Positions 7,301-13,468 of a stretch of DNA of 64,000 nucleotides are shown in pieces. Both the position numbers and the translations under genes were made by a program. Within the stretch, counting starts at the first letter, position 1, and each line of letters starts with the position of its first letter. Source of the stretch: Treponemataceae bacterium. Lineage in GTDB: Bacteria > Spirochaetota > Spirochaetia > Treponematales > Rectinemataceae. The notes beneath the pieces are model-generated. The model saw nothing but the letters and a program-made list of their open reading frames with translations. It searched no databases and was not told the DNA's origin. The stretch spans positions 160,001 through 224,000 of the forward strand of contig CAXXGJ010000006.1 of NCBI GenBank assembly GCA_963677895.2, read 5' to 3'.

Positions 7301-7615
7301 GTGAAGGTTGAGTTTAAAAATTCTCAACTCGAAAAACTCTATTCAACCGGACAATCGAAGAAGTACCCAGTAGGCTCGGCTATCGCGACAAAATTCGTGG
7401 CCGTCGTAGCCAGATTGAAAGCCGCTCAAGACATCCACGATCTTTGGAGACTGCCTTCGCTAAACTTCGAACGACTTCATGGTAACCCGAACAGGTATTC
7501 GGCGAGAGTAACGATCAAGTACCGAGTCGAGATGGAAATAGACTGGGAAAACCAGGAGAAAACCATTGGACTTATCGGTATCGTCGAGCTCTCGAGCCAT
7601 TATGGAGGAAGGTGA
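7301..7615 (+). CDS. higB: HigB-like (RelE/ParE fold) toxin
   Basis: 104 aa with LEKLY, LPSLNFERLHG, YSARVTIKYRV; toxin-first order; GTGA overlap with the antitoxin. Confidence 0.8.
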   Translation: MKVEFKNSQLEKLYSTGQSKKYPVGSAIATKFVAVVARLKAAQDIHDLWRLPSLNFERLHGNPNRYSARVTIKYRVEMEIDWENQEKTIGLIGIVELSSHYGGR

Positions 7616-8721
7616 CTATGGGCGAACTCAAGCCATTCATCAATATCGGACCCGGCATCGTTATAAAGGATGAACTGGAAGCGCTAGGTTGGTCGCAGGA
7701 TGATCTGGCACGCATCATGGGCATGTCACTGAAAGCCGTCAATGAAATCCTTAACGACAAGGTGGCGATAACAGTCGAAACAGCGCGGCTTCTGGGAAAA
7801 GCATTCGGGACATCGGCGGAAATATGGATAAACCTGGATACGGCATATCGACTTCGCCTCCGAGAAGATACCGAGCGCGAACGGGAAGCCGAACGTTATG
7901 CGGCAGTCATGAAGTACATGCCGGTCAGGGAGATGGTCAAGAAAGGATGGCTAGAAACCTACAACTCGTCATCGGAGCTTTTGGAAAAAGCCAAGAATTT
8001 CTGGAATGTTTCCGAGCCTGATTTCTCATTCTTGGGCAAGGCTAAGGAGCCCTGTTTCAGGCGTTCCGACGCTTATGAATTCTACGAGAAATATTACGCC
8101 CTCACCTGGACCCAAAAAGCAAAGGATACTGCTTCAAGTATACATTTGCCGGAATGGGACAGAACCGCGGCCAAAAAGATTGGAGCAAAGCTCGGCAATT
8201 TCTCTCGGCTCGAGAATGGCACCTCGACATTTATACAGGACTTAGAAGTGGCAGGCATAGGGTTTTTCGTACTGAGCCACCTGCAGAAAACGTATCTGGA
8301 CGGAGCGGCGATTTTCGTCGGCGCGAATCCATTCATCGTCTATACTGGCCGCTTCGATCGTTGTGACAATTTCTGGTTTACCGTAGCCCACGAGTTAGCC
8401 CACCTAGTTCTTGGTCACGTGAAGAAGGACGGACAGGAAATCCTTGATGACCTGAAACAGGAAGCCGGAAACGATCAGGAAAAAGCAGCAGATAAACTGG
8501 CTGAAACCTATCTCCACACTGTGGAAATTCTGGAATTTTGCGCGCCTTTTAAAAAGTATCTCTCGCGCGAGAGGATAGAGCGCTGCGCTGAAACAGTCGG
8601 AGTAAGCCCGGGTATTGTGGTTGGAACCTTACAGTATGCGGGTATCCTGCCGTACAAGAACCTAAATAACTATAAAAGACCAATACTCACGGCACTTCCT
8701 GCATCATGCATCAAGGGATAA
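7612..8721 (+). CDS. higA: HigA-like XRE HTH antitoxin fused to an ImmA/IrrE-type HEXXH metallopeptidase
   Basis: N-terminal PG..IKDELEALGWSQDDLA...W.NL...Y; C-terminal DNFWFTVAHELAHL and E..AD. Confidence 0.8.
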   Translation: MTMGELKPFINIGPGIVIKDELEALGWSQDDLARIMGMSLKAVNEILNDKVAITVETARLLGKAFGTSAEIWINLDTAYRLRLREDTEREREAERYAAVMKYMPVREMVKKGWLETYNSSSELLEKAKNFWNVSEPDFSFLGKAKEPCFRRSDAYEFYEKYYALTWTQKAKDTASSIHLPEWDRTAAKKIGAKLGNFSRLENGTSTFIQDLEVAGIGFFVLSHLQKTYLDGAAIFVGANPFIVYTGRFDRCDNFWFTVAHELAHLVLGHVKKDGQEILDDLKQEAGNDQEKAADKLAETYLHTVEILEFCAPFKKYLSRERIERCAETVGVSPGIVVGTLQYAGILPYKNLNNYKRPILTALPASCIKG

Positions 8722-11275: not shown

Positions 11276-11400
11276 GACTAACATAAGCTTAACCTTTAAA
11301 GCCTGGCCCGAGCTACTGCGAGGGATTGGCGTGGTTTGTGCATGTGATTTCTGCACAAACCATGCCAAAAGGCTTTATAAGGTTGAAGCATTTGTTAGGA
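11276..11400 (-). mobile_element. Integron attC recombination site (125 bp)
   Basis: R'' TCCTAAC (11400-11394) and R' GTTAGTC (11282-11276). Bottom-strand hairpin with unpaired spacer ATAA/ATTT and extrahelical G11385 and T11378. Inner 17-bp stem 11326-11342/11352-11368. Begins 7 nt after the RT stop. Confidence 0.9.
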
Positions 11401-11407
11401 TTCTTTT

Positions 11408-12730
11408 TTAAGACATTGCACTCATATCTTGTTCAATATCAAGAATACTCTTGTGTATTAATTTTTTAAATTTGTATTGCGCGTCATCTATATTTTTAAA
11501 CTGAATACCGATATAACTTAGTAGTTTTATTATCATATCGTCAGAATATTCATCATAATTGGGTATATATTTTGATTTTATGCCTTTTTTAGTTATTTCT
11601 TTATATACTCTAGATATCTTTTTAATTTTAAGCTCTTCACATTTATACCTTTTCATCTGTCTATTTATAAAGTGATCTATTGAAAATAATTCTTGAATAT
11701 TTTCTGTTTGTGAAAAAAAGAACATCCATCCATACTTTTTGTTTTCCCAAATAAATCCGGTAATTCTCAAGTTTACTCTAAACTCTAGTTTTTTTGGATT
11801 TTTTTTTGCCTGATGCTTATATATTGTTAGAAGACGTATAATAGATTCTTTGAATTTCCTTTTGCTCTTTAATCGAATTGATACTTTTCTATTTGAAAAA
11901 CAATATCCAAGGTAATCAAACTTATCATGAATTGGTGCAACCTTATACTTATCCCCATCATTAAAGACTAACTTGTATTTTTCAATTTCTTTGAATAATT
12001 TATTTTCTAAATACTTCCTATTATCAAAATTACATAAAATTAAAATATCATCAACGTACCTATAGTACTTAATATTTCTTATCTTTGAGATCTCTTTATC
12101 AAATGGAGTTAGATATACATTTGCAAGAATATTTGCTATAGATAAACCTTGCGGAACTCCTTTATCCCTGACAAAAATATCATCAGCTTTGTAAGCAGAA
12201 TTTGTATTTTTAATAGACGCCATAAGCAATTTTATAACTTCAACTTTTCTAATTTTTGTTTTAACTTGTTTTAATAGTATCTCGTGATCTATGCTTGGGT
12301 AATAATTTTTAACATCTAGCTTAATAAAGCAATTATACTGTAAGTCTTTAATACTTTTTGATATATCTGCAATTTGAGTATGCAGCCTTCTTTTTACTAA
12401 TTGTTCGGTAAATGCACTTTCAAGTATTTCGAATAATGCTCTTAAGACTAATCGATCTCTCAAAGTTGGCTTTTCAACAATTCTTGGACAACTATTGTAG
12501 CCTTTTGAAAGTAATTTTGCTTTATAGACAGTAAAACTATACGTTCCTGCCTTACACTTAGTAATAATTAACTCTGTGTGCAATGCAAAATCACGTCGAA
12601 ACTGATGGCTTGTCATTCCATCAATTCCTGAAGTTGCATTTAATCCAATTTTATCATCAAATATTGATAATAAAGCTTTATTTGTAAATATTTTATTAAA
12701 TTTTTCTGCAGAATTTAACTTAATAGCCAT
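11408..12730 (-). CDS. Reverse transcriptase, UG17/DRT10-like defence-associated type
   Basis: GIDG, SKG...PRIVEKPTLRDR, FIKLDVKNYYPSIDH, GVPQGLSIANILANVYL, YYRYVDDILI, FDYLGY, C-terminal YGWMFFFSQ. Likely start MAIKL at 12730, overlapping the SLATT stop (ORF track extends to 12814). Confidence 0.88.
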   Translation of the reverse strand: MAIKLNSAEKFNKIFTNKALLSIFDDKIGLNATSGIDGMTSHQFRRDFALHTELIITKCKAGTYSFTVYKAKLLSKGYNSCPRIVEKPTLRDRLVLRALFEILESAFTEQLVKRRLHTQIADISKSIKDLQYNCFIKLDVKNYYPSIDHEILLKQVKTKIRKVEVIKLLMASIKNTNSAYKADDIFVRDKGVPQGLSIANILANVYLTPFDKEISKIRNIKYYRYVDDILILCNFDNRKYLENKLFKEIEKYKLVFNDGDKYKVAPIHDKFDYLGYCFSNRKVSIRLKSKRKFKESIIRLLTIYKHQAKKNPKKLEFRVNLRITGFIWENKKYGWMFFFSQTENIQELFSIDHFINRQMKRYKCEELKIKKISRVYKEITKKGIKSKYIPNYDEYSDDMIIKLLSYIGIQFKNIDDAQYKFKKLIHKSILDIEQDMSAMS

Positions 12731-13290
12731 ATAAATATTCCTATCGGGATAACTAAGTAAATCAGAATTATTATTAGCCAAACTACTATATTTCGTATAA
12801 TAAAATAGCTCCATTCAAAAAATGATGGATTTGGAACAGTATTATTCTCAGAAGGATTTGTGGTTTTTCTAAGAAAACACTGAATAATTACTTTTTTATA
12901 ATCATATTCTGAGTGATTTTCAGTTTCCCTAAGCAATTGATCATATTGATCTTCAATATTCGCTGTACTATCATTTCTGTTTTCTGCAGAATAAGCATCA
13001 CTTATTAGTTTCCCGATACTAATATATTGTTCTTTTACTTGTCGGCATTCTTGTTTAAAATCTTTCTGCGATAGTAAAAGCGATACAACTAATACAATAA
13101 TCGAACCGAGCACTGAAAAGGTGTTTCTAATAGAGGAATCAACATTAGAAGGTATGATAGATACAGCAATAAGTAAAATTGAATACCACGGAATCAAGTA
13201 AGTACAGATTTTATAATTGAAATTCAATCTTTTTTCCATATTAATACGTACTTTTCTTGTAATCCACATTCTATCACTTAGCTTATTCAT
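12715..13290 (-). CDS. SLATT-domain transmembrane effector
   Basis: N-terminal W.TRKVRINMEKRL helix, two adjacent TM helices, Y..LL..TENHSEYDY, further C-terminal TM; GGAG RBS. Confidence 0.8.
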   Translation of the reverse strand: MNKLSDRMWITRKVRINMEKRLNFNYKICTYLIPWYSILLIAVSIIPSNVDSSIRNTFSVLGSIIVLVVSLLLSQKDFKQECRQVKEQYISIGKLISDAYSAENRNDSTANIEDQYDQLLRETENHSEYDYKKVIIQCFLRKTTNPSENNTVPNPSFFEWSYFIIRNIVVWLIIILIYLVIPIGIFIWLLS

Positions 13291-13299
13291 AACTACTCC

Positions 13300-13432
13300 A
13301 AAAAAAAGGGGGAATTCTTATAGGAACACCTTAACAACGCTTCTTGCAAAGCTTATCTCTCGATAAAAGCATTACTGCTTTTTTGAATAGAACACCTACA
13401 ATGTAAGCTGTGTAAACACAAAGAATCCCCCC
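13300..13432 (-). ncRNA. Putative RT template ncRNA
   Basis: 12-bp closing stem GGGGGGAUUCUU/AAGAAUUCCCCC followed by U8. Three abutting 5-bp GNRA hairpins (13380-13339), a UGUG-UUUA-CACA hairpin and two AGGUGUUC repeats. Confidence 0.78.
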
Positions 13433-13446
13433 AATAATCACAAAGT

Positions 13447-13468
13447 AATCCTAACAATTATTATACCG
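13447..13468 (-). mobile_element. Cassette 5' recombination point (G/TTAGGATT), attI-like, with adjacent TATAAT
   Basis: GTTAGGATT (13455-13447) is the exact 9-bp complement of the R'' end at 11394-11402; TATAAT at 13465-13460. Confidence 0.65.

Follow-up and report, generated by a model that had tools for sequence, protein, structure and literature searches.

The locus raises the question of whether one small RNA can offer a bacterial reverse transcriptase (RT) two natural templates for repetitive cDNA synthesis. A preliminary description of the 64,000-nt stretch of Treponemataceae DNA that was analysed (the window) had proposed that it does, with twin A-B-A' templates in two linkers flanking a trio of hairpins, one predicting an 8-nt repeat and the other the 6-nt repeat (ACACCT)n. 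The letters behind the proposal are correct: plus-strand GAACACCT is found at both 13324-13331 and 13390-13397, and the terminal repeats UGUU-AAGG-UGUU (13336-13325) and UGU-AGG-UGU (13400-13392) are present as described. Our analysis supports the first template, with a predicted product (AACACCTT)n, and places the second segment in a stem.

All components of the locus lie on the minus strand, in the order ncRNA-SLATT-RT. The ncRNA (13308..13432; 125 nt, six stem-loops and two loops, with ends inferred from the closing stem SL1) precedes a gene for a SLATT_5 effector of 191 aa (12715..13290; Pfam PF18160, 1.1e-31; PADLOC RTasSLATT, 9.6e-43) and a gene for an RT of 440 aa (11408..12730), whose start overlaps the SLATT_5 stop. 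The RT has an intact YVDD motif (residues 225-228) and a C-terminal Ser440, and is the database protein P0001 (same start at 12730, same length, YVDD and terminal Ser). It matches the PADLOC profile RT_UG17 at 4e-131 over residues 35-468, with the runner-up profile at 8e-36. DRT10 is the new name of UG17 (Tang et al. 2025, PMC12632851), and the features of that group were found here: a UG17-group RT with an intact YxDD motif, an adjoining SLATT-5 gene and, by prediction and conservation, an SL1-closed ncRNA 5' of SLATT with pseudo-symmetric stems and two loops. A C-terminal Ser/Tyr residue is also present, as S440, which is nearly invariant in alignment A1 and is predicted to serve in priming. 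The identification of the RNA as a DRT10 template RNA was therefore right (RT_UG17 at 4e-131, SLATT_5, SL1-closed ncRNA), and on sequence grounds the module is an ordinary DRT10 (UG17) anti-phage system, if a divergent member. A retron identity was considered and rejected, as the retron St85 profile scored 50 bits against a cut-off of 235 and Rfam returned no match of any kind for the ncRNA (13432-13308).

Compared by eye, for the boundary residues, with the Eco3 sequence in Table S1 of Tang et al., P0001 has counterparts of Eco3 N197, R371 and the terminal S456 in N200, R361 and S440, and Eco3 K385 corresponds to R374 (a match or a conservative change). Eco3 Y388, which is essential for defence (Ramirez 2026, 10.64898/2026.06.29.735271), is in contrast not conserved in the window RT, where the same by-eye comparison places K377.

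The single-protein scan of the genome contig collection returned no homologue, the family search of 68 other genomes gave none at E<=1e-30, and a sample of the phylum held one in 400 other genomes. Matches at 49 viral loci and on six plasmids are distant (RT identity of at most 37%), and none of the 15 matches of a PDB sequence search is a DRT10 entry. The clade-specific RNA motif had no match in the genome contig collection, and the 86 matches of an Eco3-directed motif scan look like chance. Two DRT10-like RTs from the same branch as P0001 (L010 and L030) are on contigs titled as archaeal metagenome-assembled genomes (Methanobacterium and Bathyarchaeia).

For comparison, RT loci were gathered from genome and metagenome collections; at least 187 loci were examined, giving 146 distinct parses. 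A filter (folding energy of -30 or lower, at most 50 nt from the SLATT start, six stems) was passed by 87 among the loci listed, and in 70 of these an anchor could be defined at each of the two boundary stems. They amount to 64 distinct loop pairs, a set that includes the window RNA and that of locus L084, leaves out five-stem Eco3-type RNAs through the filter, and contains related sequences that are not independent. At another locus, L047, SLATT and RT are kept, and unrelated sequence (about 1150-1300) takes the place of the 5' half that the ncRNA of its close relative L046 has.

For the window RNA (13432-13308), the predicted fold has -40.1 kcal/mol (z = -4.46), and none of 200 shuffles folds as well. 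A parser blind to sequence motifs assigned to it SL1, SL2, SL3, Loop A, SL4-SL6 and Loop B. SL1 (13421..13432 pairing with 13319-13308) is supported by the fold and by the inverted repeat I19, and is followed by SL2 (13409..13420, parsed) and by SL3 (13394..13408), the 5' boundary stem of Loop A, which is supported by the parse, the fold and the pairing of homologues. At the base of SL3 lies an anchor G (13393), probably in an A.G pair for which A13409 of SL2 would be the 5' partner. Loop A (13382..13392; 11 nt, UUCUAUUCAAA) carries the family C-U-A motif and is predicted to be abortive. Then come SL4 (13366..13381) and SL5 (13354..13365), both parsed with a GNRA tetraloop, and SL6 (13339..13352), the predicted 5' template boundary stem. 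The anchor G at its base (13338, with A13353) is placed by the homologues and by analogy with Eco3 G104. Loop B (13320..13337; 18 nt) consists of a linker (13337-13336), A (13335-13333), B (13332-13328), A' (13327-13325) and a 3' linker (13324-13320); in folds of the free RNA, part of A is paired with the SL5/SL6 junction. Directly 3' of SL1 is a U8 tract (13300..13307), followed by a putative GGAG ribosome-binding site. The tract, unscored in a terminator scan, could be a partial terminator, judging by its letters.

The geometry of Loop B fits that published for DRT10, in which an A-B-A' segment of Loop B gives rise to kilobase repeats, the 5' template boundary is set by the distance from the stem-base anchor through a 2-nt linker, and, in Eco3, the linker is U105-U106 and the priming base C116 (Ramirez 2026). 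In RNA order, the window loop reads anchor G13338, UU, GUU-AAGGU-GUU and CCUAU; A therefore starts at an offset of 2 nt and is 3 nt long, and 7 nt follow the first A' base, flanks of 7 and 8 being the commonest in the set. In Loop B of 13308..13432 alone, a 3-nt A/A' in register is matched by 8.5% of loop shuffles, and support for the template is thus mostly comparative. An A of at least 3 nt starting 2 nt past the anchor is found in Loop B of 46 of the 64 RNAs (shuffled, 10.1±2.8, maximum 18), and by the same rule in Loop A of none (shuffled, 4.2±1.9); with A of at least 2 nt, the counts are 57/64 and 8/64. The absence of an in-register 3-nt A-B-A' from Loop A of all 64 natural six-stem RNAs extends the published asymmetry of the two loops. 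As positive controls, the offset rule gave ACACGATT, the complement of the Eco1 motif, for L096 and L109, and ACTTATT, a template as in Escherichia sp. E3659, for L040.

We consider the predicted Loop B product, (ACCTTAAC)n = (AACACCTT)n with a period of 8 nt, to be well supported. A fourth homologous base (U13336/U13328) would preserve this period even if the boundary slipped by one. By analogy with the cryptic site of Eco1, a 2-bp cryptic re-annealing site (13329-13328) might give rise to small amounts of a 6-nt slip product, (CTTAAC)n. The expectation that the repeats of the two proposed templates would not be encoded as arrays holds well beyond the window: arrays of at least three copies of the 8-nt unit or of ACACCT, in any rotation and on either strand, are absent from the whole 3.5-Mb assembly.

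The nearest relative among the matches listed is L084, the RT of which is 66% identical; the closest RTs, P0002-P0005, are 50-73% identical, and L084 is the one close relative compared as DNA. From SL2 through Loop B, its RNA differs from the window RNA at 11 positions. Five are in hairpin loops (the only differences in SL2 are of this kind), two fall in SL6 and preserve pairing, one affects B, and the 3' linker has the other three. A, A' and the length of Loop B are intact and B and the 3' linker are altered; the concrete predictions are (ACCTTAAC)n for the window RNA and (ACCTCAAC)n for L084. All 28 tested pairs are kept (a two-sequence count without statistical power), and in SL1 two pairs are altered on both sides. 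Because the SL3 stem is identical in both RNAs, the pair is uninformative on covariation in SL3.

The second motif proved not to be in a linker: six stem-loops were found in place of a hairpin trio between two linkers, and most of the second proposed template sits in SL3. In UGU-AGG-UGU, 13400 falls in the SL3 hairpin loop, 13399-13394 form the SL3 3' strand, 13393 is the anchor G, and 13392 alone belongs to Loop A. Positions 13399-13394 are paired with probabilities of 0.87-0.98 in unconstrained folding, of which the SL3 pairs themselves account for 0.37-0.44 and rival helices for the remainder; the RNA has -36.8 kcal/mol with SL3 formed versus -32.6 kcal/mol with SL3 open. Because the parser presupposes the six-stem architecture, the boundary role of SL3 was checked independently, by aligning 57 homologues on the C-U-A of Loop A. 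Unconstrained pairing in this alignment has probabilities of 0.84-0.99 from position -9 to position -5 and averages 0.13-0.27 at positions -3 to +6, and a G is found at -4 in 54 of the 57. The proposed second template covers -10 to -2, with the window anchor one base nearer the C-U-A than usual. We conclude that 13400-13392 is the predicted SL3 boundary stem plus anchor, equivalent to SL6 plus G13338, and that the twin-template claim depends on a boundary stem having been taken for a linker. Since the second core copy overlaps the SL3 3' strand and the first lies in Loop B, the two are not in symmetric positions. The symmetric pairs are instead the anchors G13393/G13338 and U13389/G13327, each of the latter 7 nt from the next stem.

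For (ACACCT)n to be made processively from this segment, SL3 would have to melt, at positions whose equivalents are paired at 0.84-0.99 in the 57 homologues. The stem is weak (two G-U pairs, 0.37-0.44), two products do arise from RNAs engineered with an A-B-A' in each loop (Ramirez 2026), and the motif is real, has 8 nt in common with Loop B, more than in any other of the 64 RNAs, and persists in L084 in a 2-nt version (GU...GU). But L084 has U13400 changed to A and reads AGU where UGU is needed, which also reduces its shared core to 7 nt; A' would take in the anchor G and lie 12 nt from SL4 versus about 7; and SL3, in parser-defined stems, varies pairwise across 27 RNAs (pair 1 is A-U in 11, G-U in 8 and G-C in 7). 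In a MAFFT run on 22 SL3 segments, the 5' strands did not align. The motif is, moreover, a normal SL3 ending: AGGUG is exact in 9 of the 64 RNAs and the pattern [AG]G[AG][CU]G occurs in 33, so the SL3 copy of the shared core is mostly typical of the family. We give a processive (ACACCT)n template next to no probability.

An A-B-A' with A of at least 3 nt is present in 62% of random 20-nt segments, and a 3-nt A-B-A' over the same SL3 strand in 25 of the 64 RNAs (shuffled, 17.9±3.7). The 8-nt word is the longest common to the SL3/Loop A side and Loop B in any of the 64 RNAs and is reached in this one only, with about 0.2 expected. A direct repeat of at least 8 nt nevertheless arises in 9.7% of 2,000 dinucleotide shuffles of the window RNA, and the sharing of the 8-mer on which the preliminary description relied is near chance (P≈0.10). 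The shared core might still act other than as a template, if 7 nt of nascent (AACACCTT)n paired with the anchor and SL3 strand in the other half of the RNA and so exerted feedback on, or were handed to, a second RT protomer. Sharing of at least 7 nt is confined to 4 of the 64 RNAs, with 8 nt here and 7 nt in L084, but chance alone would give about 1.3 of 64, the four include a pair of kin (the window RNA and L084), and Eco3, in the available text of Ramirez 2026, makes no chimeras even with identical A/A' in both loops. Such a role seems to us hardly probable.

At the boundary offset, Loop A itself (13392-13382) shows no homology between A and A', and the loop lacks the second, single-stranded A-B-A', 2 nt from the anchor and about 7 nt from the next stem, that a two-template RNA calls for. 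By analogy with Eco3 U43, its priming position would be U13389, 7 nt from SL4, a flank seen in 40 of 59 Loop As. The distance from the anchor to the C-U-A is 1 nt shorter than in 47 of the 64 RNAs, and the register of Loop A is for this reason slightly uncertain. If SL3 adopted a shifted, G.G-closed register, UUC-UA-UUC (13392-13385) would begin exactly 2 nt from the anchor and could template a 5-nt repeat, (GAATA)n, from within a single-stranded loop in a sequence that L084 keeps. Against this, Loop A is conserved family-wide anyway, and SL3 would have to close two bases earlier, at a cost of 5.5 kcal/mol. A' would also be only 5 nt from SL4, and in Eco3 deletion of two or more bases in the 3' linker abolishes synthesis (Ramirez 2026). 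In a related-strain contig from run X9 (one contig, depth about 6), C13385 is A, which breaks A'. We regard (GAATA)n as very unlikely.

Taken as a whole, the prospect that this is a natural DRT10 RNA with both loops processive, making the 8-mer together with (GAATA)n or, with still lower odds, with (ACACCT)n after SL3 has melted, is improbable. If it were true, the production of two signals by one defence system would call for an explanation, but the evidence speaks against it. The accessible parts of the literature describe two-product DRT10 RNAs of the engineered kind only, and the family survey of Ramirez 2026 (Fig. 2b) could hold natural exceptions. The best candidate that we saw for a natural second template is in L003 and L085 (ncRNA at about 1257-1401), where UAUC-UAUC stands in tandem in Loop A, with 2 nt of homology at the boundary offset and a flank of 5 nt, and Loop B reads CUUAU-CUUAU. 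Similar 2-nt Loop A patterns occur in L016, L051, L076, L080 and L102.

We thus favour, at a probability of roughly 85%, a one-template DRT10 in which Loop B is copied repetitively, Loop A is abortive and the cDNA activates SLATT; genes, fold potential, conservation and geometry are observed, and the mechanism is modelled on published systems. In DRT10, two RTs bind one pseudo-symmetric RNA (Ramirez 2026; Chen 2026, 10.64898/2026.10.08.757509), wild-type Eco3 Loop A, as described in Ramirez 2026, has no A-B-A' and gives short abortive products only, and RNAs engineered to carry an A-B-A' in both loops yield both products, with no chimeras reported there. By analogy, two RT molecules would sit on the window RNA, one held at the base of SL3 and one at that of SL6. 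The Loop B protomer would prime on its own C-terminal Ser440 opposite G13327, copy B and A, and halt 2 nt from anchor G13338; the 3' end of the cDNA (...AAC) would then slip back onto A' (GUU) and the cycle repeat, yielding protein-linked, single-stranded (ACCTTAAC)n = (AACACCTT)n. The Loop A protomer would prime near U13389 and add a few nucleotides, with no realignment possible. Accumulating cDNA would, as in the published model, switch on the SLATT membrane effector during infection. The earlier suggestion of two RT protomers on one RNA accordingly agrees with the published DRT10 architecture, with which the window system would be analogous. Given the published 2:1 complex, that idea is correct but known, and novelty would lie only in two natural processive templates.

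Among the systems described, Eco1DRT10 (PMC12632851; Ramirez 2026) resembles the window system in SL1-3 plus SL4-6, a short Loop A, a Loop B template, an 8-nt repeat and SLATT. Its repeat sequence is different, its A/A' is 2 nt versus 3 nt here, it primes on Tyr444 whereas the window RT ends in Ser, and the window RT belongs to a separate branch, at a tree distance of 2.8 from loci with the Eco1 template. Eco3DRT10 (same two papers) shares the 2-nt 5' linker, the 7-nt stretch that follows the first A' base, the terminal Ser and the N197/R371 counterparts, but has five stem-loops, a 9-nt repeat, a 4-nt A/A' and a Loop A of 12 nt, against 11 nt in the window RNA. The UG17-A DRT10 of Escherichia sp. 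E3659 (Sanchez-Nieto et al. 2026, 10.64898/2026.04.29.721553) has the same ncRNA-SLATT-RT order, overlapping genes, SLATT-5 and a 3-nt A/A'; its repeat, unlike ours, is the 7-nt AGTAATA. The E. coli H120 DRT10 (Chen 2026), to which we liken the window system by inference, is a 2:1 RT:RNA complex with product in one pocket only, and the 7-nt 3' flank of its loop 2 equals that of the window Loop B; it differs in its Tyr467 primer, five stem-loops and subtype UG17-B. Telomerase works in a similar way, through alignment-plus-template realignment and a stem-loop template boundary, but the window RT is a bacterial UG17 enzyme, presumably protein-primed, whose repeat has no genomic array, and is not a member of that group.

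The whole ncRNA-SLATT-RT module (13455-11276) is an integron gene cassette. At its 5' end, a core site GTTAGGA (13449..13455, minus strand) is the exact complement of the R'' box of an attC site that closes the cassette (11276..11400, minus strand; R''/L''/L'/R' boxes, hairpin of -37.2 kcal/mol). We take the boxes to be those of general attC anatomy. Both a bottom-strand hairpin and a 5' GTT core complementary to R'' were thus found; a simple form of the core-complement test flags 4 of 57 loci. SL1 starts 22 nt past the crossover. In L084, the same core site and the next 5 nt precede the RNA, and the cassette is flanked by attC sites. A 2,104-nt contig from another study spans 11374-13456. In the genome, the attC has 45 matches, most in an array on contig C39 (46 kb), where sites of this attC family number at least 35. 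The DNA upstream of the window cassette is single-copy. A complete integron at the locus, with IntI and attI adjoining the cassette, was considered and rejected; in the assembly (92.8% complete), no TIGR02249 match for an IntI integrase rose above the cut-off. The window cassette apparently lies outside any array, with no adjoining integrase. The portions of the literature available to our search included no paper joining integron cassettes to UG17/DRT10, and the locus presents a DRT10 travelling as such a cassette.

A cassette placed in this way could be intact but silent, which would concern expression and not the mechanism. Only 22 nt separate the cassette start from SL1, no attC lies upstream, and a sigma-70 promoter scan of the minus strand scored no promoter. 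A perfect TATAAT (13465-13460, minus strand), 5 nt upstream of the core site, may supply a promoter to the cassette, and has no scored -35 partner. But both open reading frames are intact and a cassette about 99% identical occurs in another study's run (X4), and we attach very little probability to silence at this site.

Beyond the attC, a DUF1801-like gene (11144-10692, minus strand) is followed by what appears to be the first half of another attC (about 10675-10620, minus strand); because of that half site, 11144 to about 10620 may be a second, truncated cassette. The segment has no other BLAST match in the genome. Next is the two-gene PADLOC candidate defence system PDC-M19 (10463-8724, minus strand), a DUF488 protein and its partner (3e-104 and 6.5e-110), which together with DRT10 makes a predicted small defence cluster. 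On the plus strand, 7301-8721 carries a HigB-like toxin gene and a gene for a HigA/HTH-ImmA/IrrE peptidase fusion, a PD-Lambda-2_B-like pair.
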